The position numbers and the translations under genes were made by a program. A stretch of 64,000 bases of DNA. It comes from an uncultured Candidatus Saccharibacteria bacterium. Its GTDB lineage: Bacteria; Patescibacteriota; Doudnabacteria; UBA920. Position 1 is the first letter of the stretch. The number at the start of each line of letters is the position of its first letter. This document shows positions 52,770 to 63,920 of this stretch, piece after piece. Under the pieces are notes generated by a model. It searched no databases and was not told the DNA's origin. It saw only the letters and a list, made by a program, of their open reading frames with translations. The stretch covers positions 407,253 to 471,252 of the forward strand of contig CAYQEU010000001.1 in NCBI GenBank assembly GCA_964416765.1. Reading direction: 5' to 3'.

Positions 52770-53504
52770 ATGTTTAGATTTGGAAAGCGTAAGAAAAATC
52801 CTACGCTAACCGTTGAAGTAGAAATTTTGTCGGAAACAGTATTCCCGACATTCGCCGTCATCAATTTCGACCTCGGGGGAGATAAGGTTTCCCGGGACAT
52901 CCCGTTCGCCAACAAATCCAATTTGTTAGCTTACTTAAATTGGATTAAGGAGCAAAACGGGCTGGATATTTTGAAAGCGATAACGATAGACACGGAGTCG
53001 GTGGACCGGGCAATTAAAAAGGTTCAGGATTCAAAACTCCCGGACGACCCGTTTTCGTTTACCTCGCCCTTCTTCGCTACTGGCTCAGCCAGCGCGTATG
53101 AGGAGCGTGAGCCGCAACCCATCTCGGTTCGGCAATGCGAAAGCGACCGCAACGACAGTTGGAAACACGCCTACCTTTACAACGCCTACGGCGACAAACT
53201 GCGGAACACCCAGTTCTCAAGCCTCGTCTCAGGTCGCGGATTACTCGATAAGCTGGCAACCGCCGGTCTCATCAGCAAAGAGGAAGACGCGGAATTGCGC
53301 GTCCAGCTCGAAAAGCTCGACCTGCCCGAATCCGAACAGGAAGAAGGCGAGTGCGACCGGCAACAGCAACGGTTTGCGGAACTTTGTTCCGAAGACCAGC
53401 GCGAGGATTTCGCCGACAGCATCCGGTCGTCATCGGAGCAGGGTTCGCCCTTCATCGGCGGATTCACGATAGTCATCACCAGCAGCGAGGACAACATCTT
53501 TTAA
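52770..53504 (+). CDS. Hypothetical protein
   Basis: 244 aa. SD GGAGGG 8 nt upstream. Acidic C-terminal half. No motif. Confidence 0.5.
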   Translation: MFRFGKRKKNPTLTVEVEILSETVFPTFAVINFDLGGDKVSRDIPFANKSNLLAYLNWIKEQNGLDILKAITIDTESVDRAIKKVQDSKLPDDPFSFTSPFFATGSASAYEEREPQPISVRQCESDRNDSWKHAYLYNAYGDKLRNTQFSSLVSGRGLLDKLATAGLISKEEDAELRVQLEKLDLPESEQEEGECDRQQQRFAELCSEDQREDFADSIRSSSEQGSPFIGGFTIVITSSEDNIF

Positions 53505-53614
53505 CCTCGTTCGACATTACCCGCCATATTTCCTTCATACCTAAATACTCACAAACCGAAAACAGCCAAGTCATACCCCTTTGACCTGGCTGTTTTTCAT
53601 TTATCACCCCGGTA

Positions 53615-53643
53615 AACAAAAATGCCCCCTTGCGGGGGCATTC
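53615..53643 (-). terminator. Rho-independent terminator of cspA (minus strand)
   Basis: 9-bp hairpin aatgccccc/gggggcatt with a T-run on the minus strand. Confidence 0.65.
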
Positions 53644-53649
53644 TAACGA

Positions 53650-53850
53650 TTATGCTCGTTTAACGTTTATCGCGTTTTTTCCTTTAGGAGAATCCTCAGT
53701 ATCGAAGGTGACTTTGTCGCCTGGCTTGAGTTCTTCTAATGTCAGATCAGCGAGAGAATTTCTGTGGAAGAAAAGATCCTTATCTTCGCCGTCTACGCTT
53801 ATAAAGCCGAAGCCTTTATCTTCTACAACTTTCTTGATCGTACCGTTCAT
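53650..53850 (-). CDS. cspA: Cold-shock protein (CspA family)
   Basis: MNGTIKKVVEDKGFGFISVDGEDKDLFFH has RNP1/RNP2 motifs. A long AT-rich 5' UTR (~180 nt) lies upstream on the minus strand. Confidence 0.9.
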   Translation of the reverse strand: MNGTIKKVVEDKGFGFISVDGEDKDLFFHRNSLADLTLEELKPGDKVTFDTEDSPKGKNAINVKRA

Positions 53851-54034
53851 AGTTGAAATATTAGTGAGTTAAAGCAATTAAATATGTTGGCGAAACTCGA
53901 CTAAATTTCAAATCATATAACTTTGCTTTTTAATAATACCAAATATTTATAAAAAAGTCAAGTATAGGTTGAATAGCCTCAATAGCTATTATACTCATTA
54001 AAAGCTATACTTACCCTATAAAGGAAAGGATAAT

Positions 54035-54220
54035 ATGGCTTTTGAATCAATTGTGTTTCCGTTTGATAAGGATTTTAAGGATTTCGAAAGGGCAGTAGGG
54101 GAGATTATAGCATTGCGGGCTGAAGTAGAAATGATTCGAAGCGTGCTTATGGAAAATGGCCAGAGGGATGTAATCAAAAAAGCGGAACGGAATATGTATA
54201 AGCGTTTGGGTAGCAAATAG
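54035..54220 (+). CDS. Small hypothetical protein (61 aa)
   Basis: SD AAGGAAAGGA upstream. A strong terminator lies immediately downstream. Confidence 0.5.
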   Translation: MAFESIVFPFDKDFKDFERAVGEIIALRAEVEMIRSVLMENGQRDVIKKAERNMYKRLGSK

Positions 54221-54251
54221 AAAAACCCGCCCTTGGAGGGCGGGTTTTTAA
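54221..54251. terminator. Rho-independent (bidirectional) terminator
   Basis: aaaaacccgccc-ttggag-ggcgggttttt. Confidence 0.7.
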
Positions 54252-54462
54252 TTTAGGCAGCAGTGGCACCATCTGCGGGCTTTTGTTCCGCAGGAGTGTT
54301 CGGCGTAGCCGGGGTGGGGTTAGTATTTTCTTCAGCCATAACGTTCCTTTCGCTGCAATACCTCTATCCACGGCAGGCAGTATTAAGTTGTAAGGGTCCC
54401 ATTGGATAATGAACCAGTACCTTAATTATGGCATACATATGGGCTAGTGTCAAAGGGGCCAC

Positions 54463-54478
54463 CGTCGCACAATGTATG
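54463..54478. repeat. Left copy of 16-bp direct repeat CGTCGCACAATGTATG flanking the AT-rich island
   Basis: Exact match to 57611-57626. Embedded in a local palindrome (catac...gtatg). Confidence 0.5.
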
Positions 54479-54499
54479 CAAGGTATCGTTGTGGAAAAA

Positions 54500-54727
54500 C
54501 TAAATTCTTTCTAAACCTCTCAGCTTTCTCAACTCATTTATCTTGTTGCGTCTATCTTTGATCTTCTTAAAATTACGAGTAGTAGGATCAATATTTGAAC
54601 GCAATAAATACTCTAAGTAGTTACAACTTTTACAAGTCCAAATCCAAAGCGGGGGATTATAGGCAATGTGATATTTTACCCAACCACCGTGGTTATTTAC
54701 GTGCTGGTTACAAATATAACACTCCAT
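54500..54727 (-). CDS. Small Zn-ribbon protein (CxxC...CxxC), hypothetical, last gene of island operon
   Basis: 75 aa. CYIC and CKSC pairs. Starts 8 nt after the NTase stop. Confidence 0.5.
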   Translation of the reverse strand: MECYICNQHVNNHGGWVKYHIAYNPPLWIWTCKSCNYLEYLLRSNIDPTTRNFKKIKDRRNKINELRKLRGLERI

Positions 54728-54735
54728 GTAGTAAT

Positions 54736-56076
54736 TTATTTATACTTAGGTAATATCCAGCTATCAAGAACAACATTTTGCCGTGCTCTAACGACACAAA
54801 CATTGTTCCTTATTCCATAGCATTCAACATAATGATTTCCATTAAACTTCGTGTTTTCGGGCTGGTGTAAAGTATGATGATCAGTTATTTCACCTCTTGG
54901 TTGCGGCGACCTGTTATCATTCTTAACTTTCCATTTGATGATATCTAGTTCGCTTTCAGTTTCAGCTGAAAAATCTATCTTTCTGTCTGTTTCTATAATC
55001 CCGGCTGCGTCTAAAATAGTATGGCCGAAACCGTTTCTCGCTAAAGCCCTTGCTATAATCTTGATTTTTTCATTTTTCTCGATTAAGACAGGTATCTTTT
55101 TATCAAAAAGGTATTCTTCAGATTCACTTTTTCTAGTGTAATAATTTCCATCAAGCAAATCATCTATATTAGATTCTTCGGACAAATCTTCTAGCTTAAT
55201 CAAAAAGTTGTCTGCTGCATTTAAAATCTTTTCTTTCTCAGCTTCCGTCATGTCTTCAATGTAAGCATCAATGTACTTCGTGCTATCAGCGCGATCCGTT
55301 ATTTGGGGAGAACTTATGTGTTTTGGAAGATCACAAAAGAAATGAAATATCGCTGAATATATATCCATTTGGACGTTTTGGAAAAAGTACTGAATTACTA
55401 TCTGTTCTATGTGAAAAGATTTAAACTTAAAATTTGAATCTTTAGTTTTTACTGCATGTTTCCAGCCCTTTATGAACTTAACAGTCTTTCTAAAATCGGA
55501 GTTTTGGTCGTTTATTGTACGAGACATTTCAATATAACCCCGGGGGTCAGTAGGAATCCATCCCATTTCTTTATGATCTTGAGATAGTTCTTGATATAAG
55601 TGCTTACGTCTGGATGGTCGCACCTTTAGAAGCTCAGGAACTAGGTACTTATCTAAACCGAATTCGTTAACTTCGTGTTTAATAGCAGGTACTATATCTA
55701 ATGAAAATAGAACATCGTCACCATCATTCTCAAAAAAAAGAATAGTTATTGAGTGCGTTTGATATTCAATTTTTACGTTATGAGAAGTGGGCGATTGGTA
55801 TTCTTCGTTTAGTCTGTTATATAGATCATTTAATACTTCCTGAGAAGTCGCAATACTAGACTGAGTGTCACCAATAATATATAAAACATCAAGATCGTGT
55901 AATGGTGTAATGGCTGTGAACCTCGGGTAAGATCCAATTTGTAAACAATTAGATTCACCCAATATTATTTTTAGTGAATCGTATAGATTAGAAATTAATA
56001 ACCTTTCTGCATCTTTAGGAGACAGATTGTTTCTAACATAATCCCTCAAAAGCTTACTAATGGTTTCTTGCGTCAT
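54736..56076 (-). CDS. Pol-beta-superfamily nucleotidyltransferase, CD-NTase/SMODS-like (candidate second-messenger synthase) with a ~200-aa C-terminal domain of unknown function
   Basis: hGS-x12-DLD (QIGSYPRFTAITPLHDLDVLYII) plus a third acidic strand LFSLDIVPA ~65 aa later, the [DE]h[DE]h...hDhVPA pattern of cGAS/DncV-like NTases. 446 aa. AT-rich codon usage. Confidence 0.65.
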   Translation of the reverse strand: MTQETISKLLRDYVRNNLSPKDAERLLISNLYDSLKIILGESNCLQIGSYPRFTAITPLHDLDVLYIIGDTQSSIATSQEVLNDLYNRLNEEYQSPTSHNVKIEYQTHSITILFFENDGDDVLFSLDIVPAIKHEVNEFGLDKYLVPELLKVRPSRRKHLYQELSQDHKEMGWIPTDPRGYIEMSRTINDQNSDFRKTVKFIKGWKHAVKTKDSNFKFKSFHIEQIVIQYFFQNVQMDIYSAIFHFFCDLPKHISSPQITDRADSTKYIDAYIEDMTEAEKEKILNAADNFLIKLEDLSEESNIDDLLDGNYYTRKSESEEYLFDKKIPVLIEKNEKIKIIARALARNGFGHTILDAAGIIETDRKIDFSAETESELDIIKWKVKNDNRSPQPRGEITDHHTLHQPENTKFNGNHYVECYGIRNNVCVVRARQNVVLDSWILPKYK

Positions 56077-56573
56077 ATGCTTGTTGTTATCATAGAAGTA
56101 ACAACATCGTTCAAAAGCCTTCCTCTAAAGTTTGTAACTGCTCCGTTTCTTTGGTTGTCAACGAGATTCATTTGATCTTCGGGCATTGGCCCCTCGGAAC
56201 GAGGAGCGTATACAACTAAAGCGCAAGAATCAGGTTTCTTTTGTATTATAGCTGAAACATCAGTTTTCCAATCAGGCCAATACACCAGATATAATGAACA
56301 TGATTCAGCCTTGCCGATATCACTTATAGAAGAAACTTCAACAATATTTCTTTCCTTAAAAAGATGGGAATCAATCAATAAATCCCTAAGACTGTTAAAA
56401 TGTGAATCTTTTGCGAAAATGGCAATCTTTCGTTTAGATAGACCATTCCCTAATCTGTACAAAGCGGGACTGACTCCATTCAACCAAAGATATATTGCCC
56501 AAATAATTCCTCCGAGCAAAAATAAAGAATCAATAGTTCCTACCACCGTTAAAATGTTTATTGCTATATTCAT
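56073..56573 (-). CDS. N-terminal transmembrane protein with a ~130-aa cytoplasmic alpha/beta domain (candidate effector/sensor)
   Basis: TM segment(s) IAINILTVVGTIDSLFLLGGIIWAIYLWL, then alternating beta-alpha pattern (KIAIFAKDSHFNSLRDLL..LYLVYW..ALVVYAP). Stop overlaps the NTase start (ATGA). Confidence 0.6.
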   Translation of the reverse strand: MNIAINILTVVGTIDSLFLLGGIIWAIYLWLNGVSPALYRLGNGLSKRKIAIFAKDSHFNSLRDLLIDSHLFKERNIVEVSSISDIGKAESCSLYLVYWPDWKTDVSAIIQKKPDSCALVVYAPRSEGPMPEDQMNLVDNQRNGAVTNFRGRLLNDVVTSMITTSI

Positions 56574-56618
56574 TTATAAAAATTAGATCTATTTAGGTGC
56601 CTTATATAACTGGCTTAA

Positions 56619-56918
56619 TCATACACCTTTTTCGCTTTCTGTATAAGTTCCACCCAAACTTTCTACAATCCTTTTCTTTAATGCAGGAATAGGGGAGACT
56701 AGCCATTGCTTAGGCTCTTCTTGGACACATAATCCAGCTGACAGCCCAAACTCATCAACAATATCCCTAAGGTCTCCGAGACGAATCAGAATCGGTTGTT
56801 TGCAACCACATGAGCAATAACCAACTTTATAACCCATTGATCCGGTTTCAGGATCAGCATCAAGAGGGTAGCCTTTAAGTGGCCAACCACCTTTAGGATT
56901 TTGTCTGACTAGGAGCAT
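56619..56918 (-). CDS. Hypothetical small Cys-containing protein (99 aa)
   Basis: GYCSCGCKQP. Overlaps the upstream ORF by 26 nt in another frame. Confidence 0.4.
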   Translation of the reverse strand: MLLVRQNPKGGWPLKGYPLDADPETGSMGYKVGYCSCGCKQPILIRLGDLRDIVDEFGLSAGLCVQEEPKQWLVSPIPALKKRIVESLGGTYTESEKGV

Positions 56919-57258
56919 AAGGTTTCTTCTTCTTGGTTTGTTCGTAATCTACCCGCCGTAAGAACTTCTTATGACTTTCTTCTAATTCCACAAATACAGG
57001 GTCGGGAGTGTAAATGGACCTAATATATTTCTTAGCCTCGCTAAAGGCAATCTGAGGTGTTTTACCAACTAGCTGAGGGGTATGAATAGACTCACGTCGC
57101 ATAAAGTTAGAATCTTGGTCATACTCATGAATTGATACTTGGTATTCCTTATGGCCGTCAGCTGATAAAATAGGCAAAGCTTTAAGGTAAAACCTCAAAT
57201 CGTAGTATTCAAAGAGATCTTCATAAAAATATACTTTTTTACGCTTTATTCGATTCAT
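56893..57258 (-). CDS. Hypothetical small basic protein (121 aa), first gene of island operon
   Basis: AT-rich, Lys-rich C-terminus. No motif. Confidence 0.4.
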   Translation of the reverse strand: MNRIKRKKVYFYEDLFEYYDLRFYLKALPILSADGHKEYQVSIHEYDQDSNFMRRESIHTPQLVGKTPQIAFSEAKKYIRSIYTPDPVFVELEESHKKFLRRVDYEQTKKKKPYAPSQTKS

Positions 57259-57610
57259 ACAGATATCTTATAACTAGGAGCTTAACCATACCAGCAATAA
57301 ACTAAAGAAAATTATAAAACCCAATAAAAATAAATATAAAATAATAACTTATAACGATATGTGATACACAGGTCGAGCTTACCAGCGGGGGAGGCCCCCG
57401 CTCTCTCCGGCTTTTTGGCGGCCGATCGAGCGCGGGCCTCACACCCGTTTCTGTCTTAAACCACATACTAACTCGTTAAAAGAACTTATAACGCTTAGAA
57501 ACGATCCTAGTGCAATACAACTATAACGGAGTAGTGGGGAACTAGTTGTTAAAAGACTACTCTGCTATACCTGAAACCCTGGGGAATAGGCATAAACGCA
57601 ATATATCATA

Positions 57611-57626
57611 CGTCGCACAATGTATG
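57611..57626. repeat. Right copy of 16-bp direct repeat CGTCGCACAATGTATG
   Basis: Exact match to 54463-54478. Confidence 0.5.
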
Positions 57627-57896
57627 TTATACGACATACTATATTGATCAATTAATGAATCCGGATTTAACAAATATATTTATTGATTACTAGATTGTGC
57701 ATGTAACCACATATTTATATAAATTTATAATCGCGCTCTCCTGCTTGATTAACAATGTTAGATAATTGTTAAGATAATGATTTAATACTCCCTTTTCACC
57801 CCCTCTCTATTTCATGCCTATATCTCTATCTATCGACGATCGTCACGAATAAAAATATCTTCCCTTTTATCATATTTAGCCATGAATTTTGATAGA

Positions 57897-57925
57897 AACA
57901 AAAACCCGGGTTTGCACCCGGGTCA
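57897..57925 (-). terminator. Rho-independent terminator of the minus-strand hydrolase/pilin locus
   Basis: Palindromic hairpin acccgggt-ttgc-acccgggt with a T-run on the minus strand. Confidence 0.6.
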
Positions 57926-57956
57926 AATTACAGCTTTTTCTAAACGTTTAACTTCG

Positions 57957-58541
57957 CTAATCTACGTCACCATTACCAGGAGCGTTGTTATTAGTATCAC
58001 TGTTCGTATCCCCGATTTTGGTACCCGCACATGTCGCGTTACCCACAATATAATCAATGGGGCAACGGAATATGCCAGCAGGCACCCCATTGATTGTGGG
58101 GTTTCCGGCTAATAAAGGTTTTCCGTTTGGTAGGACTCTGCCACCAAAAATCAAAAAGTTAGTTAAAGAAAATGCTGCCAGCACGAGAAAGAAACCAATG
58201 ACCGCGTTCACCAATAGTTTTTTTGCTGATGTAACAGCTTCGGCGTTTCCGGCCGCAACTACAAAAGAGTAGCCAGCAAAAACTATCATGAACACCGCGA
58301 TGATACCGGCCATATCTATCAAAAAGTTCGTCACTATAATAACCAGGTTAAACAGGTCGGTAAGTTGGCAGGGATTGTCTGAAAAACTGCCGCACGGGAC
58401 AAACCCCTGGCCTGCGTTAGGGTCAGCTGCCTGAACCAAGGTTGGCATAATTAGCATAGTTGTAGCCACAACCAAGAATAAGACGTAAAAAACCTTATTT
58501 AATATTTTCATGTCTGGGATCATTAATTTTATTTTATTCAT
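57957..58541 (-). CDS. T4SS-pilin-like (TrbC/VirB2-type topology) secreted two-TM hairpin protein
   Basis: Signal peptide ...LVQA/ADP, a Cys pair (PCGSF..NPCQ), two long hydrophobic helices split by a short polar loop, and a Gly/Asn-rich C-terminus. Confidence 0.6.
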   Translation of the reverse strand: MNKIKLMIPDMKILNKVFYVLFLVVATTMLIMPTLVQAADPNAGQGFVPCGSFSDNPCQLTDLFNLVIIVTNFLIDMAGIIAVFMIVFAGYSFVVAAGNAEAVTSAKKLLVNAVIGFFLVLAAFSLTNFLIFGGRVLPNGKPLLAGNPTINGVPAGIFRCPIDYIVGNATCAGTKIGDTNSDTNNNAPGNGDVD

Positions 58542-59636
58542 TTATCTGCCTATGTAATTAATATGAAGGTTAGGTCCCGTAGTCGTGGGGAATACTTTGT
58601 AGTCTTTAATGGCCGTGCATTTTGGATCCTTAGAGGCTTCGTTGGCAAAGTTAACTTTACCCAATGAAATGATTGCTTCACAAAGGGTGGGCCAGTTAGG
58701 GTTAGTTGAACCTGCCTCTTTGGAATAACTAGGAGAACGTCCCCCGTTTAGCGCCAAATCCACGCAATTTCCACCCCGTGGATCCCCTGTCTTATGGCAA
58801 CCGCTAATGTGGGTTCCACTAATGCTGGAAGTAAGTATCCAACTTATACCAGGGGTTTTAGCTTTTAATCCGGCCAGTTGATCAGCCAAATCCTTGCATA
58901 GCTTACTCGCGCCGGCAGCATGCGGTATGCTGGCGGGAGTATCTACAATACCTCCGGAACAATTCACAGCAGTACCGGGCTTTGATCCGGTGGAAACGGT
59001 ATCGTCATTAGCACCGTGGCTGACCGCGGTATCGCAGTCGTCCGTTTCCCCTAGCCCCAAATCTTTGCATCCGGGCAACTCGTAATTGCCCAACAACTGC
59101 GGTGGCTGGATGCTCCTGAAGGCCACTAAGGTAGGGTTGATTTGTCTGAGTAAGACGTAGGAAGACAGCATGATCAGGAAACCTGCCAATACAGAGACCA
59201 GTATCTCCTTGGCCTGTTCTTTGCCATGCTCTCCTCCCACCATGTACATATACCCTGCCAGGACCACAAAGAAGACGGAAGCTACCGCTCCAAAAGCTAG
59301 GGCAAAGCGGTAACCCTTGTTGACACAGGTAGCCAGGTCCCCTGCTGATTGGTTGTCGGTTACCTGGGCGTTCTCCTGGAAAGTACCAGTGTTGGTGACG
59401 GTGGCGTTGGAAGGGGTGGGGGCACAAAGCAGGGCCCTGATGGAGCTTTCTACTCCCCTGCCTACATAGGTGGCTCCCGGTGACTTGGTGGGCGCGTTGT
59501 TGGCTGGGGCGTTGTTGGTGGGGGGAACCGGGTTAGGAATAAGCTGGGCGTTGGCTGGGGCAGCGTAGGCAAAAACCATTTCCACAAAAGCAATGGAAAG
59601 GATTATCAATTTTAAAGTATTGGTTTTGGTTTTCAT
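58542..59636 (-). CDS. Paralog A: shared signal-peptide + two-TM pilin-like module fused to an unknown C-terminal domain (possible LAS/M15-like peptidase)
   Basis: N-terminal 190 aa nearly identical to paralogs B and C. The C-terminus has HKTGDPRGGNCVDLAL and LHINY, which could form a metal site. 364 aa. Confidence 0.6.
   Translation of the reverse strand: MKTKTNTLKLIILSIAFVEMVFAYAAPANAQLIPNPVPPTNNAPANNAPTKSPGATYVGRGVESSIRALLCAPTPSNATVTNTGTFQENAQVTDNQSAGDLATCVNKGYRFALAFGAVASVFFVVLAGYMYMVGGEHGKEQAKEILVSVLAGFLIMLSSYVLLRQINPTLVAFRSIQPPQLLGNYELPGCKDLGLGETDDCDTAVSHGANDDTVSTGSKPGTAVNCSGGIVDTPASIPHAAGASKLCKDLADQLAGLKAKTPGISWILTSSISGTHISGCHKTGDPRGGNCVDLALNGGRSPSYSKEAGSTNPNWPTLCEAIISLGKVNFANEASKDPKCTAIKDYKVFPTTTGPNLHINYIGR
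59097..59526. repeat. Repeat copy A (~430 bp) of the shared 5' pilin-like module
   Basis: Near-identical to 60861-61326 and 62121-62586, with 2 mismatches seen by eye. Confidence 0.8.
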
Positions 59637-59646
59637 ATATTTAAAA

Positions 59647-60189
59647 TTACTCTGTTGGGCAAAAGCTTAAGCCAACGTTATATGGATTAGGTCGATAGTC
59701 ATCAGGCGGGGATTTGTAAACATAAATCGGCAATTGGCAAAGGTCGGCTTTGGGTGCGCCAAATAACTCAACCAGAGCCTGCTCCGCCGCTTTCTTTGCT
59801 GAATCCACGTCATTTTGGTCAGTGATCCACAGTTCGAACTGGTCCCCATCCGGCTGATAATCTATCTTGTACTGGTCTGTTTGCGAGAGAAGCAACGGAG
59901 TAGAAGCCGATGGACTATAATCTTTAGGAAATACATTCCTGATTTTAATGGACCCGTTAACCGTTTTGTAATAAATCCATTCTTGGGTGATGTCCTTTTG
60001 CGGGCTATTGGGGTAGTTTAATTTCTTTGACAGGGCGTTTGTCTGGTCTGTCCTGGTACCCGGGTTGTTGGAATTGGTGACACCCTGCCTTTGACCGGAC
60101 AAAATAAAGACCACAATAATTACCAGGATAATTAACAATACCGCCCCAATGGCAACGTATATTTTATTTTCCTTAATTAAATTCCACAT
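59647..60189 (-). CDS. Hypothetical membrane-anchored protein
   Basis: N-terminal TM helix IYVAIGAVLLIILVIIVVFIL then a soluble domain. Start overlaps the upstream gene's end. Confidence 0.5.
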   Translation of the reverse strand: MWNLIKENKIYVAIGAVLLIILVIIVVFILSGQRQGVTNSNNPGTRTDQTNALSKKLNYPNSPQKDITQEWIYYKTVNGSIKIRNVFPKDYSPSASTPLLLSQTDQYKIDYQPDGDQFELWITDQNDVDSAKKAAEQALVELFGAPKADLCQLPIYVYKSPPDDYRPNPYNVGLSFCPTE

Positions 60190-61406
60190 TGTGTTTTATA
60201 CTCGTTATAAACACGGGACATTCTAACCACATAGTCTCGGGTTTGCTCCAAAGAGTTAGCTCCTACAATGCAAGCAGTTTGGGCGGCATCCTTGAACGGA
60301 CACAGCGCCACTATCATGCCCGGACATATGCTACTGGGTCCTATCCTCCCCTCTCCGGCATTGTAGCCAGCCGCAATTTTTACGTAATCAACTCCGCCCG
60401 CTTTTTGCGCGATGTACTTCATGTATTTGGCGGCGCAGGGAATTTCCGCGATCCCGTTGGTTTGCCACCCATTGTTAGTGCAGCCAAACCGCGCGGCGGT
60501 GTCATTGCTCATTTGCATTAGCCCCTTACAGCATCCAGTCCAGCTGACTAGGGTTTGGTTTAAGTTGCTCTCAATTGTAGCTATGGTCTTAATAAAATTT
60601 GGGTCAATTCCATTAGCTTGCCCGGCCGCTTTGAACGCGGCATCAAAAGTCTTGTTACTGCATAGGGTTTTAAGCTTTGGACTGTCCTTTCCCAAACTGC
60701 AAACTTTCCCGCTTTTCCCCGTCATTGTTCCGCCCTGAGGTGGAATTCCTGTACCGTCGCCATTACTGACCCCGGGGGTGCCATCGGCAAGGGCGCAATC
60801 GTCCCCCTGGCCCAGATGCACGTCGCTACAGCTGGGAAGGTCACTATACTTCCCCAACAGCTGCGGTGGCTGGATGCTCCTGAAGGCCACTAAGGTAGGG
60901 TTGATTTGTCTGAGTAAGACGTAGGAAGACAGCATGATCAGGAAACCTGCCAATACAGAGACCAGTATCTCCTTGGCCTGTTCTTTGCCATGCTCTCCTC
61001 CCACCATGTACATATACCCTGCCAGGACCACAAAGAAGACGGAAGCTACCGCTCCAAAAGCTAGGGCAAAGCGGTAACCCTTGTTGACACAGGTAGCCAG
61101 GTCCCCTGCTGATTGGTTGTCGGTTACCTGGGCGTTCTCCTGGAAAGTACCAGTGTTGGTGACGGTGGCGTTGGAAGGGGTGGGGGCACAAAGCAGGGCC
61201 CTGATGGAGCTTTCTACTCCCCTGCCTACATAGGTGGCTCCCGGTGGCTTTGTGGGCGCGTTGTTGGCTGGGGCGTTGTTGGTGGGGGGATCAGCTAAGG
61301 CAGGGGTAGTGAAGGCGAGGAATTGGAGAGGGATTAGCACCAAAATATAAACCAAAAACACTACTTTGCCGTATCGCGTTTTGTTTCTGGATCGAAAAAT
61401 ATTCAT
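60177..61406 (-). CDS. Paralog B: pilin-like module fused to a family-1 lytic transglycosylase (SLT) domain
   Basis: The C-terminus carries the SLT triad ES (TIATIESNLN), GLMQ (CKGLMQMS) and AYNAG (AAGYNAGEG). Shared N-terminal module. Confidence 0.7.
   Translation of the reverse strand: MNIFRSRNKTRYGKVVFLVYILVLIPLQFLAFTTPALADPPTNNAPANNAPTKPPGATYVGRGVESSIRALLCAPTPSNATVTNTGTFQENAQVTDNQSAGDLATCVNKGYRFALAFGAVASVFFVVLAGYMYMVGGEHGKEQAKEILVSVLAGFLIMLSSYVLLRQINPTLVAFRSIQPPQLLGKYSDLPSCSDVHLGQGDDCALADGTPGVSNGDGTGIPPQGGTMTGKSGKVCSLGKDSPKLKTLCSNKTFDAAFKAAGQANGIDPNFIKTIATIESNLNQTLVSWTGCCKGLMQMSNDTAARFGCTNNGWQTNGIAEIPCAAKYMKYIAQKAGGVDYVKIAAGYNAGEGRIGPSSICPGMIVALCPFKDAAQTACIVGANSLEQTRDYVVRMSRVYNEYKTQCGI
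60861..61326. repeat. Repeat copy B (466 bp)
   Basis: Identical by eye to 62121-62586. Confidence 0.85.
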
Positions 61407-61421
61407 ACAGTTATTGTAACA

Positions 61422-62645
61422 CTAACAACCCGAAGTTTTATATGATGTCCACACTGCCTTGGCCCACACGCCATAACCATCCCCTCCCGGGTGGATCCCA
61501 TTATATTTTTGTGGGAAGATATTTAAATTCTTGGAATAAGTATCGTAATAGCAACCGCTTTGCCCGCTCTTTATACCGGCTATTACAGTTTGGACAGTAG
61601 TGTTATTTACGTTCGGGGTATCAGTACGCGATCCTCCCTCAGATGTAGTAGAAGTAAATTTCGGAGGGCCAATCCAAATTATTTTACCCACACCTTTGCT
61701 CTGGAGTACTTGAATTAACTTCGCGGTATCAGTTTTTACCTGTTGTTGATTGTGTTGGCCATTTGCGTCATTCGTCCCCAACGAAATCACTACAATACTT
61801 GGTTTATTGCTAGCATAATAATCCAAAGATTGCGCGGCAAAAGAATTCGCCCATTGTGTAATGGTAGTACCTCCTCTGTTATCAGGATCCTCACCCATCC
61901 CCCTATTAACCAGAACGCCACCATCCGCCGCGATAAGAGTTTTAAATTGTGGCTTGAGGCCCACAGAAAGCGAATCTCCAATAATTAGAAACTTTATCCC
62001 CTGGGTTTGTCCTGGCCCCCCATTACTGCCCCCTCCTGTAGTGGTGTTCCCTTGTGCATCAACACAGTTCTCCCCGAGTCCCGCATCAGCACAGCTTGGG
62101 AGGCTGTATTTGCCGACTAGCTGCGGTGGCTGGATGCTCCTGAAGGCCACTAAGGTAGGGTTGATTTGTCTGAGTAAGACGTAGGAAGACAGCATGATCA
62201 GGAAACCTGCCAATACAGAGACCAGTATCTCCTTGGCCTGTTCTTTGCCATGCTCTCCTCCCACCATGTACATATACCCTGCCAGGACCACAAAGAAGAC
62301 GGAAGCTACCGCTCCAAAAGCTAGGGCAAAGCGGTAACCCTTGTTGACACAGGTAGCCAGGTCCCCTGCTGATTGGTTGTCGGTTACCTGGGCGTTCTCC
62401 TGGAAAGTACCAGTGTTGGTGACGGTGGCGTTGGAAGGGGTGGGGGCACAAAGCAGGGCCCTGATGGAGCTTTCTACTCCCCTGCCTACATAGGTGGCTC
62501 CCGGTGGCTTTGTGGGCGCGTTGTTGGCTGGGGCGTTGTTGGTGGGGGGATCAGCTAAGGCAGGGGTAGTGAAGGCGAGGAATTGCAGCGCTAAAACAGC
62601 GGCTGTAAACCCGATCCTAAAGTATTTTGGTTTTTGTTTCCACAT
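61422..62645 (-). CDS. Paralog C: pilin-like module fused to a GDSL/SGNH hydrolase domain
   Basis: SGNH blocks: GDS (LIIGDSLSVG), GxND (VVISLGTNDANG), DxxH region (NGIHPGGDG). Shared N-terminal module. Confidence 0.7.
   Translation of the reverse strand: MWKQKPKYFRIGFTAAVLALQFLAFTTPALADPPTNNAPANNAPTKPPGATYVGRGVESSIRALLCAPTPSNATVTNTGTFQENAQVTDNQSAGDLATCVNKGYRFALAFGAVASVFFVVLAGYMYMVGGEHGKEQAKEILVSVLAGFLIMLSSYVLLRQINPTLVAFRSIQPPQLVGKYSLPSCADAGLGENCVDAQGNTTTGGGSNGGPGQTQGIKFLIIGDSLSVGLKPQFKTLIAADGGVLVNRGMGEDPDNRGGTTITQWANSFAAQSLDYYASNKPSIVVISLGTNDANGQHNQQQVKTDTAKLIQVLQSKGVGKIIWIGPPKFTSTTSEGGSRTDTPNVNNTTVQTVIAGIKSGQSGCYYDTYSKNLNIFPQKYNGIHPGGDGYGVWAKAVWTSYKTSGC
62121..62586. repeat. Repeat copy C (466 bp)
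   Basis: Identical by eye to 60861-61326, 1260 bp apart. Confidence 0.85.
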
Positions 62646-63920
62646 TTATTTTCCGAGGAAATCTAAAGGATTGTAGGTGTAACCGCTGGGGACGGAATAT
62701 GAACCGTAAGTGCTTTGGTAAGCGCCCGGGGTAATAGTAAACCCGTTCGCGTCAAACACGGTGAAGTGCAAATGGAACCCATGGTCAGGACCATACAATA
62801 AGGCGGAAGTATTTCCCGTGTTTCCTTCGTAGCCAACAATGTCACCGCGTTTTACGGTTTGCCCGCTGCTGAGGATAAACTTTTTCATGTGACCGTACAA
62901 AGTGACAATATTGCGGTTGCCGCTTTTAGTCGAAATAGTATGTTTGATAGCGCACCAATTGCCGTACGCGGCGGCGCCAGTAGCGCATTTCACAACAACA
63001 CCATCAGCGGCGGCATAAATAGTAGTCCCTGCGGGACCGGCAAGATCTATTCCGTTATGGAAAGAATAGCCTAAAGAAGTAAAACCGGTGTTGCCGTAAC
63101 CCTGTGTCATGACACCGTTTAATGGCCACGCCAGTACTCCTTTGCTTGCCGCAATGGAATGGTTGCCGCTATTCCGGGCTTTATTATCAAGATTGTAAAT
63201 TTCCTGCTGGATATCAGCCTGTTCACTGCGGGTGCTGTTCAAAACTTGCTGATATTTGCTTTCCTGGCCCTGGGTCTGCTGTAATAACGACTCTTTGGCC
63301 AGACGTTGGTCGTTCAACGCATCCTGGTTTTGACTTAGCTCATCCTTAAGTTCAGAAAGGCGTTGCAACTGCGCTTTGAGGTCGGATTGCTGTTGCTCCA
63401 GTTTTTTCTTAACTTCTTTGATGCGGTTTACCAAATCAAGAACCTGCTTGTTTACGCTCTGAGTGTATTCAACCTGGTCCAAAAACGCGGAAAAATTATC
63501 GCTGCCCATGGTTAGGGTCAGGAAAGAATTGTTATCCAATTCGTTCAGCTGGACTACAAGTTCGGCCAGAATTTTCCGGTTGTCCGCGATTTCCGCTTCG
63601 CGGCGGTCAATTTCCGTTTGCAAATCCTGGATTTGCAGGGTGGTATCGTCGATGCGGGTATTATTAGCCTGGATTTCGAGCTCGGTTGACTGGATCTGGG
63701 AATCATAAATGCCGATCTCATTTTGAAGTGAGGCGCTCTGTCCCCTTAACCGGCCGATATTCTGGTTAAGGCCATTAATCTGATCATTCAGGTTTTTTAG
63801 CTTGTTCTGCAGGTCGGTGCGGGTGTCTGCTCCGGCAGGTGAAATAAATAAAAGGCTCAACCCTAATCCCAGGATTGCCGCCAATATTTTTGTTTTTGTT
63901 TCAGCAAACTTCGATTTCAT
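62646..63920 (-). CDS. Coiled-coil M23 family metallopeptidase (EnvC/NlpD-like peptidoglycan DD-endopeptidase)
   Basis: Signal peptide, ~230-aa coiled coil, M23 motifs HxxxD (FHNGIDLAG) and HxH (GFHLHFTVF). Confidence 0.85.
   Translation of the reverse strand: MKSKFAETKTKILAAILGLGLSLLFISPAGADTRTDLQNKLKNLNDQINGLNQNIGRLRGQSASLQNEIGIYDSQIQSTELEIQANNTRIDDTTLQIQDLQTEIDRREAEIADNRKILAELVVQLNELDNNSFLTLTMGSDNFSAFLDQVEYTQSVNKQVLDLVNRIKEVKKKLEQQQSDLKAQLQRLSELKDELSQNQDALNDQRLAKESLLQQTQGQESKYQQVLNSTRSEQADIQQEIYNLDNKARNSGNHSIAASKGVLAWPLNGVMTQGYGNTGFTSLGYSFHNGIDLAGPAGTTIYAAADGVVVKCATGAAAYGNWCAIKHTISTKSGNRNIVTLYGHMKKFILSSGQTVKRGDIVGYEGNTGNTSALLYGPDHGFHLHFTVFDANGFTITPGAYQSTYGSYSVPSGYTYNPLDFLGK

Follow-up and report, generated by a model that had tools for sequence, protein, structure and literature searches.

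A probable two-gene type I CBASS with a single-helix membrane effector, carried in an AT-rich, repeat-bounded island of a CPR-like genome

The window considered here is a stretch of 64,000 nucleotides of contig CAYQEU010000001.1 (assembly GCA_964416765.1, positions 407,253 to 471,252), from an uncultured Candidatus Saccharibacteria bacterium placed by GTDB in the Patescibacteriota and with a genome like those of the candidate phyla radiation (CPR). An AT-rich island in this window encodes five co-directional open reading frames (ORFs) on the minus strand. The functional unit of the island is very probably a two-gene type I antiphage signalling system based on cyclic oligonucleotides (CBASS), consisting of a 166-aa effector with one transmembrane (TM) helix and a 446-aa cyclase. 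The pair is horizontally acquired cargo in a repeat-bounded island and, on comparison with homologous loci, the other three ORFs (121, 99 and 75 aa) are not part of the CBASS. An earlier note on this DNA had described five ORFs between 54463 and 57626 and all are present as it stated. The note had also seen an unusual layout and possibly a minimal or new variant of a system of nucleotidyltransferase and membrane effector; that view does not hold, as PADLOC already has CBASS models that both core proteins match in full. The system is an ordinary one, an added member of a class already modelled in PADLOC, and since defence finders of that type would call the island type I CBASS no new category is required. 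The features that carry the identification are as follows.

56073..56573, minus strand: CBASS effector of 166 aa (PADLOC '1TM'), with an N-terminal TM helix followed by a conserved linker and then a soluble domain of receiver (REC)/CheY-like type
54736..56076, minus strand: CBASS cyclase of 446 aa (PADLOC PDLC00785), with a nucleotidyltransferase core of cGAS/DncV-like type (CD-NTase) at residues ~1-310 and a C-terminal AGS-C domain
54769..55098, minus strand: AGS-C domain of the cyclase, residues 327-436 (Pfam PF18134 AGS_C)

Residues 1-438 of the 446-aa protein match positions 1-442 of the 443 in the PADLOC Cyclase model PDLC00785 (E = 4e-174). The NCBIfam model CBASS_cyclase_b aligns with E = 4.5e-30 and 105 bits, against a cut-off of 200. 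Gly48, Ser49, Asp61, Asp63 and Asp127, the last within the segment LFSLDIVPA, are invariant in a family alignment of 35 sequences, and in alignment the motif residues fall on those that are catalytic in P. aeruginosa CdnD (PaCdnD). The nucleotidyltransferase (NTase) motif reported in the earlier note is therefore present, with GS, Asp61-Leu62-Asp63 and the distal Asp127 all in place, though the spacing is GS-x11-DxD rather than the x12 given there. An AlphaFold2 (AF2) model of the cyclase, with a predicted local distance difference test score (pLDDT) of 91.2 and a predicted template modelling score (pTM) of 0.89, displays an NTase core and a helical lobe. Foldseek searches with this model return EcCdnC (3e-11), PaCdnD (1e-9) and human and mouse cGAS (~1e-9), and the family profile ranks the relatives by sequence in the same way as they are ranked by structure. 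The PADLOC match, the intact triad and the cGAS-like fold bear out the assignment of the protein as a CD-NTase/SMODS enzyme.

The C-terminal extension, previously put at ~200 residues and left unassigned, is ~140 residues beyond the CD-NTase core and corresponds to Pfam AGS_C (E = 4.8e-14, 52.9 bits against a gathering cut-off of 26.7). In the AF2 model residues 338-437 form beta strands only, with pLDDT of ~90. AGS-C has been described as an Ig-like fusion of ~18 kDa that is specific to type I CBASS, where ~40% of the CD-NTases carry it, namely in clades B and H and parts of F and G, and its presence correlates with the phage families that are restricted (bioRxiv 10.1101/2023.05.21.541620). 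The Ig-like character is taken from that work and our model speaks only to the all-beta nature of the domain. One review applies the label 'AGS-C' to the helical lobe of DncV; this usage was set aside as we judge it not to denote the Pfam AGS_C beta domain.

We note one further feature of the cyclase model. Residues ~151-170 (55567-55626; VRPSRRKHLYQELSQDHKEM) are basic and form the sole internal stretch of low confidence, pLDDT ~62. The low confidence suggests a flexible, exposed segment, although the secondary-structure assignment is partly helical. That it might match the protease-cleaved 'activation loop' of clade A, D and G CD-NTases (PMC12991175) is pure speculation.

The 166-aa protein matches the PADLOC CBASS '1TM' model PDLC00664 (E = 2.4e-58, residues 6-165 on positions 11-170 of 174) and also C3a59, a model of a type III CRISPR accessory TM protein (1.3e-46). 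It has one hydrophobic segment, residues ~3-31, and the soluble domain that follows has a REC/CheY-like fold; no chain in the PDB is matched at the sequence level. The family numbers 918 homologues and is highly conserved, with the motifs RLGNGLxKR and VTNFRGRLLND. SLATT, Cap15, TM-STING and TIR proteins had been put forward as possible relatives of the effector. None of them matched, and the soluble domain is REC/CheY-like instead.

The two genes are joined by an ATGA sequence, in which the stop codon of the effector gene overlaps the start codon of the cyclase gene; this overlap, remarked on in the earlier note, is present in the sequence. The association extends well beyond this genome. A scan with the effector alignment, taking one genome per species, provided 80 loci, among them at least 23 from Patescibacteria and others from Acidobacteriota, Proteobacteria, Chloroflexota, Bacteroidota and a Methanosarcinales archaeon. 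Their neighbouring genes were classified with hidden Markov models built in this analysis. A CD-NTase is found within 3.5 kb of the effector in 63 of the 80 loci. In 20 it is an AGS-C-type cyclase placed directly downstream on the same strand, the arrangement seen in the window, and in 43 it is another CD-NTase, mostly a 255-aa enzyme of PDLC00803 type directly downstream. Six loci present type III CRISPR genes near the effector and in one, at a contig end, no effector ORF was called. The reverse check gives the same picture. Cyclase homologues in an ENA metagenome contig (L002), a Verrucomicrobiia metagenome-assembled genome (L003/L004) and two loci from Maritimibacter and Magasanikbacteria (L088, L090) each have an effector of 169-173 aa immediately upstream, and the pairs of Maritimibacter and Magasanikbacteria adjoin integrases or transposases.

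Homologues of the two proteins do, then, co-occur, and such recurrent co-occurrence makes the pairing solid. As far as gene neighbourhoods allow, the presence of a cyclase in 63 of 80 loci supports the earlier suggestion that the NTase and the upstream TM protein would act together in nucleotide-signalling defence. Two other opinions expressed there need revision. A membrane protein preceding the synthase is not unusual but a recurrent order, seen in 20 of the 80 loci and in L002, L003, L088 and L090, and systems of this kind are not rare in CPR, given that at least 23 of the 80 species-representative effector loci are from Patescibacteria/CPR. The nearest database relatives of the effector and cyclase are only 53-62% identical to them.

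The Verrucomicrobiia contig displays an arrangement of its own. A complete type III CBASS, comprising AAA/TRIP13, Cap8, HORMA2 and a 294-aa cyclase, is directly followed by a 1TM effector, then an ORF of 68 aa and a cyclase of AGS-C type (L003/L004, 2295-7344). Two different cyclases may here share the one effector gene between them.

Type I CBASS is defined by the absence of Cap2/Cap3, HORMA/TRIP13 and type IV ancillary genes, in a classification reportedly that of Millman et al. in 2020. The 75-, 99- and 121-aa ORFs have no Cap2/Cap3, HORMA/TRIP13 or other ancillary match in Pfam, PADLOC or NCBIfam, and the same models do find E1-E2, JAB, HORMA and TRIP13 in other loci. That Cap2/Cap3, HORMA/TRIP13 and SAVED partners are lacking had been noticed before and is correct; it is not, however, unusual but the defining property of the type. 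The absence of type II-IV genes, the adjacent effector, the intact triad, the cGAS-like fold and the AGS-C domain together lead to the assignment as type I CBASS. A described type I CBASS with an AGS-C cyclase, from a lactococcal source, has the same order of TM effector followed by NTase/AGS-C (PMC11381338). The island pair differs in the class of its effector, '1TM' here against the 2TM, 4TM, SLATT and Cap15 classes that have been tested, and in its host, which is a CPR-like genome.

Evidence on the signal comes from partner swapping. In one locus (L089) an AGS-C cyclase that is 49% identical to that of the window is paired with the nuclease NucC (E = 5e-107) in place of the TM effector. In another (L049) a cyclase of PDLC00803 type, the commonest partner family of the effector, is likewise paired with NucC. 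NucC is a nuclease specific for cyclic tri-adenylate (cA3) (PMC11229360). Because both partner cyclase families also pair with this cA3-specific enzyme, the balance leans modestly towards these cyclases making cA3 and the REC-like domain of the effector sensing it. The effector resembles Cam2, a protein from 26 type III CRISPR loci that combines a REC-like domain with a TM helix at the N-terminus (Hoikkala et al. 2024, PMC11229360) and that was independently predicted, never shown, to sense cA3 (PMC11229360). A role for Cam2 in CBASS receives no mention in that paper (PMC11229360).

Two observations on these NucC loci stand apart from the question of the ligand. The cyclase-NucC pair of L089 (2385-5317) is preceded by a LexA/S24-like repressor and adjoined by an AbiE toxin-antitoxin pair, the latter giving the locus the look of a defence island. 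L049 (6001-9836, Rhodospirillales) holds two tandem CBASS modules on one strand: a 1TM effector, a cyclase of PDLC00785 type without AGS-C and an E2, and then the PDLC00803-type cyclase and NucC.

The effector family itself is found at the end of several kinds of operon. In a gammaproteobacterium and in an archaeon (L076, L068) it closes operons of the order Cmr3-Cmr4-Cmr6, and in Ktedonobacterales operons that are type III-D-like; the CRISPR operons concerned are of types III-B and III-D. It also ends type II (E1-E2/JAB) and type III (HORMA/TRIP13) CBASS operons. The CBASS '1TM' effector and the CRISPR protein Cam2/C3a59 appear to be one REC-fold family spanning CBASS types I to III and type III CRISPR. 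The effector of the window and Cam2 have the same N-terminal TM helix and C-terminal REC-like domain, a likeness drawn from architecture and genomic context. The type III CRISPR setting is shared by the effector's family, not by this particular gene, and where Cam2 serves Cas10 the effector of the window serves a CD-NTase.

Comparisons with other nucleotide-signalling systems are informative. Type III CBASS with CdnC or CdnD and NucC is close with respect to the enzyme, EcCdnC and PaCdnD being the nearest solved relatives of our cyclase, and NucC, like the effector family, is common to CBASS and type III CRISPR. The differences are that the NucC system has a nuclease as its output and here there is a membrane protein, that HORMA/TRIP13 regulators are part of type III CBASS with none in the island operon, and that the cyclase of the window carries AGS-C. 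Cam1 and Csx23, which are activated by cA4 in type III CRISPR, and Cap15 and Cap14 of CBASS would, by analogy, share with the effector the logic of an N-terminal TM segment joined to a cytoplasmic nucleotide sensor, with depolarization or disruption of the membrane as the result. The sensor folds are distinct: REC here, CARF in Cam1, a novel fold in Csx23, a beta-barrel in Cap15 and SAVED in Cap14. The structures of these four proteins are not among the listed fold matches of the effector.

These comparisons suggest how the pair might work. Infection by phage would switch on the 446-aa cyclase, with the AGS-C domain probably tuning which phages are sensed, and the product of the enzyme would be a cyclic oligonucleotide, with the trinucleotide cA3 as the likeliest candidate. 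This signal would bind the cytoplasmic REC domain of the 166-aa protein, which would be anchored in the membrane by its one N-terminal helix, and binding would drive oligomerization or a conformational change that leads to breach or depolarization of the membrane. The infected cell would then die or arrest before phage are released. The effector and cyclase genes are coupled in translation by the ATGA overlap. The observations of this study comprise the families and folds of the proteins, their catalytic residues, the recurrence of the pair across phyla, its foreign composition and the cargo replacement described below; membrane disruption as the output is proposed by analogy with Cam1, Csx23 and Cap15, and defence activity of the pair is likewise something we infer.

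The inverse logic would be that of a guard, as in Panoptes, with the cyclase constitutively active and its product holding the effector off until phage sponges or nucleases deplete the signal and so release it. A precedent exists in type II Panoptes, where a TM effector is held inactive by cA3 (PMC13577387), and sequence alone cannot separate activation by a ligand from repression. Panoptes, however, employs mCpol minimal polymerases and not CD-NTases (PMC13577387). Moreover the cyclase family of the window also pairs with NucC, which is a ligand-activated nuclease, and the effector occurs in type III CRISPR operons and HORMA/TRIP13-regulated CBASS operons, in which synthesis of the signal is induced by infection. 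Type I CBASS operons bearing AGS-C act as conventional inducible defences (bioRxiv 10.1101/2023.05.21.541620). We regard guard logic as quite improbable and prefer activation of the effector by the cyclase product.

How does the pair relate to the rest of the island? The island spans 3.1 kb with a GC content of 36.4%, compared with 47.7% for the 64-kb window, which places it in the lowest 1% of windows of the same size. The GC content at third codon positions (GC3) is 0.28-0.38 in the island genes and 0.54-0.65 in host or neighbouring genes. The earlier remark that the island is AT-richer than the rest of the window is thereby borne out. The borders given there, 54463 and 57626, coincide exactly with two perfect copies of a 16-nt direct repeat, CGTCGCACAATGTATG, a feature absent from that description. 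Against these two perfect copies in the window, 0.03 matches are expected by chance. The low GC content nevertheless continues past the borders, to roughly 53500-58000. The features of the island outside the CBASS pair are listed next, several by comparison with L085, a contig from another sample.

57611..57626, no strand: first copy of the direct repeat CGTCGCACAATGTATG, a perfect copy at the pilin-side border
57259..57610, minus strand: non-coding leader with a promoter-like site and a GC-rich hairpin, 79% identical to L085 1-175
56893..57258, minus strand: backbone gene A, 121 aa, fast-diverging, its product 36% identical (E = 4e-20) to a 111-aa protein of L085
56619..56918, minus strand: backbone gene B, 99 aa, with a conserved CxCxC motif, its product 72% identical to a 93-aa protein of L085
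54490..56642, minus strand: variable cargo of effector, cyclase and Zn-ribbon genes, GC 34.6%, replaced in L085
54500..54727, minus strand: gene for a 75-aa Zn-ribbon protein with two CxxC pairs, 8 nt downstream of the cyclase gene
54463..54478, no strand: second copy of the direct repeat CGTCGCACAATGTATG, a perfect copy at the cspA-side border

The L085 contig was compared with the window by blastn and alignment of the junctions. Its CspA is the same as that of the window, and it matches positions 53172-54488 of the window at 97% identity; this homology resumes ~10 nt inside the cspA-side repeat, and L085 has the same 16-mer at 2051-2066. The contig retains a diverged leader (79% DNA identity) and homologues of backbone genes A and B. 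From the gene B homologue to the repeat, positions 740-2040 of L085 carry genes for a ClpP-like protease (180 aa, Pfam CLP_protease, 1e-20) and a 93-aa protein in place of the effector, cyclase and Zn-ribbon genes, and this segment is also AT-rich, 33.5% GC. The comparison marks 56642..54490 as a slot whose cargo can be exchanged and which lies behind backbone genes A and B. The ClpP-like segment of L085 may be another defence module or else a remnant of a phage. Phage prohead proteases, which are ClpP-like, have been reported as activators of CBASS cyclases (PMC12991175).

The foreign GC and GC3, the direct repeats, the replacement of cargo in L085 and the integrases or transposases beside homologous pairs are the reasons for considering the CBASS pair as mobile. 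No recombinase is encoded in the island. An exact-pattern scan of Joint Genome Institute (JGI) metagenomes for the repeat with its flank, in either empty or occupied sites, gave 0 matches, a JGI metagenome scan with the 99-aa/93-aa alignment confirmed no further variant of the island, and a look-up of the pilin-side flank protein returned the same genome only, with neither a pilin-side junction in relatives nor an empty site. Because the island lacks a recombinase and no empty site was found, we can only infer that the 16-nt repeats are att-like sites. The repeat could instead be a shared operator, as the cspA-side copy is placed upstream of a strong -35 box, at a distance of 9 nt; we judge this less likely than an insertion scar, since the pilin-side copy is not followed by a comparable promoter.

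The island might alternatively represent a new or minimal five-gene system of NTase and membrane effector, with the small ORFs integral and the C-terminal extension a novel domain, which is how the earlier note had treated it. The five ORFs are indeed co-directional and tightly spaced: the 121- and 99-aa ORFs overlap by 26 nt and the 166- and 446-aa ORFs by 4 nt, with gaps of 45 nt between the 99- and 166-aa ORFs and 8 nt between the 446- and 75-aa ORFs. No internal terminator was detected, and the three small proteins are without family assignment. They have no match in Pfam, PADLOC, NCBIfam or PHROG; across all island proteins the PHROGs gave one match, that of the cyclase to a PHROG of unknown function, and nothing else. 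A deep search with the 121-aa protein found only itself among 5.8 billion proteins, and in a cluster look-up all five island proteins were singletons. Against the five-gene proposal, none of the 80 effector loci contains a homologue of the small ORFs, the genes of 121 and 99 aa go with non-CBASS cargo in L085, the extension is AGS-C and the two core proteins match existing CBASS models. The Zn-ribbon family is rare, with 22 representatives, and the closest relative (79%) adjoins a serine recombinase with no cyclase beside it, which hints that the gene travels with mobile elements. A single five-gene system is very unlikely and the two-gene CBASS, with three small ORFs outside it, is preferred.

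The two closest Zn-ribbon relatives are on short contigs (L086, 276-1232, and L087) where each gene is convergent with a larger one. The larger gene of L086 encodes a large serine recombinase (Pfam Recombinase, 2e-19).

The effector might carry a genuine two-component receiver, phosphorylated by a kinase and unrelated to the cyclase product. Of the phospho-acceptor pocket only the beta-3 aspartate, Asp101, is retained. Elsewhere the pocket positions, assigned from the predicted-strand register and not from superposition, are Ala54-Lys55 in place of the acidic pair after beta-1, Tyr122 in place of Thr/Ser after beta-4 and Asn148 in place of Lys after beta-5. No histidine kinase is present in the island or recurrently near effector loci, and in about 86% of loci the effector gene goes together with a nucleotide cyclase or a Cas10 system. 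The loss of most of the pocket and the want of a kinase nearby indicate that the REC fold serves something other than phosphotransfer, and we consider a true two-component receiver extremely unlikely. The conserved residues of the effector (Asp101-Trp102, Tyr122-Ala123-Pro124 and Asn148-Phe149-Arg150-Gly151-Arg152) are located at the C-terminal ends of the beta-strands and on alpha-5. This cluster is the classical active-site face of REC domains and a plausible phosphate-binding site.

That the cyclase is a housekeeping or antibiotic NTase (KNTase, GlnE-like or an MNT antitoxin with a HEPN partner) which merely sits beside a membrane protein can be dismissed with near certainty: all such enzymes share the Pol-beta GS...DxD fold, yet there is no Pfam or NCBIfam match to MNT, KNTase or GlnE families, the significant matches are all to CBASS cyclase, SMODS or AGS_C, the structural neighbours are CdnC, CdnD and cGAS, the third aspartate, Asp127, is invariant, no HEPN gene is present and the pairing with the effector is conserved.

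Some points weigh against our interpretation of the CBASS pair and its signal. The Pfam SMODS model scores 25.2 bits on the 446-aa protein, just below the cut-off of 26.5. No signal generator is recognisable near the effector in ten of the 80 loci, of which four are located at contig ends. The argument for cA3 is an indirect one from effector swapping at 49% cyclase identity. Cam2 is a bioinformatic prediction, with no follow-up found in the literature searched. The nearest solved relatives of this AGS-C cyclase are CdnC and CdnD, yet no AGS-C fusions are recorded in type I clade C/D cyclases (bioRxiv 10.1101/2023.05.21.541620); for that reason the product of the cyclase could be another oligonucleotide. 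Finally, there is neither a terminator nor a promoter between the CBASS pair and the remaining ORFs, and the small ORFs may be co-transcribed with the pair and have some regulatory role in this genome.

Several aspects give the system interest beyond its own genome. The CBASS '1TM' class is linked to the proposed CRISPR effector Cam2. Partner swapping with NucC constitutes independent genomic evidence for cA3 as the ligand, and a REC domain acting as a nucleotide receptor is a directly testable proposition. The effector family is common in CPR/Patescibacteria, a group in which defence systems have received little study, and the exchange of CBASS genes for ClpP-like genes is cargo replacement at strain level, at a fixed site in a CPR-like genome. 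The effector is a worthwhile experimental target. A bolder proposal, to which we lend tentative and somewhat less than even credence, is that the effector represents an unexplored class of immune receptor, in which a repurposed receiver binds cA3 and gates a single-helix, membrane-disrupting assembly, that it is among the main nucleotide-signalling effectors of CPR/Patescibacteria, and that the recombinase-less, repeat-bounded island, with the CBASS pair as exchangeable cargo behind two fast-evolving genes, could be a new miniature carrier of defence cassettes.

The remaining observations concern the leader and the flanks. A promoter scan places a promoter-like site, with a 10/12 match, at 57340..57311 of the island leader. 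A GC-rich hairpin, GGCCCGCGCUC...GAGCGGGGGCC, occupies about 57370-57450 of this otherwise AT-rich segment and overlaps a 54-aa ORF that is probably spurious; the L085 contig terminates inside the hairpin region. Over its full length the leader has a predicted fold only modestly more stable than those of shuffled sequences (RNA fold z = -2.2), and an Rfam scan of 53300-58700 gave sub-threshold terminator-like noise with no family match for the leader.

Just outside the cspA-side repeat is the best promoter match of the region, on the minus strand (TTGACA-17-CATAAT with TG, 11/12). It is followed by a leader of ~85 nt, a 28-aa ORF (MAEENTNPTPATPNTPAEQKPADGATAA, 54339..54253) and a strong terminator with a 13-bp stem (54249..54221). 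This small, well-punctuated transcription unit (54253-54453, minus strand) belongs to the flank that L085 shares at 97% identity.

The flanking genes are as the earlier note had them, with cspA (Pfam CSD) on one side and pilin-fused hydrolases (T4SS_pilin, SLT, GDSL, M23) on the other. The latter form a five-gene run on the minus strand, 57957-63920, whose products have a hydrophobic segment like that of T4SS pilins or domains of peptidoglycan/lipid hydrolases. In several the pilin-like segment and a hydrolase domain (SLT, GDSL lipase or M23 peptidase) occur together.

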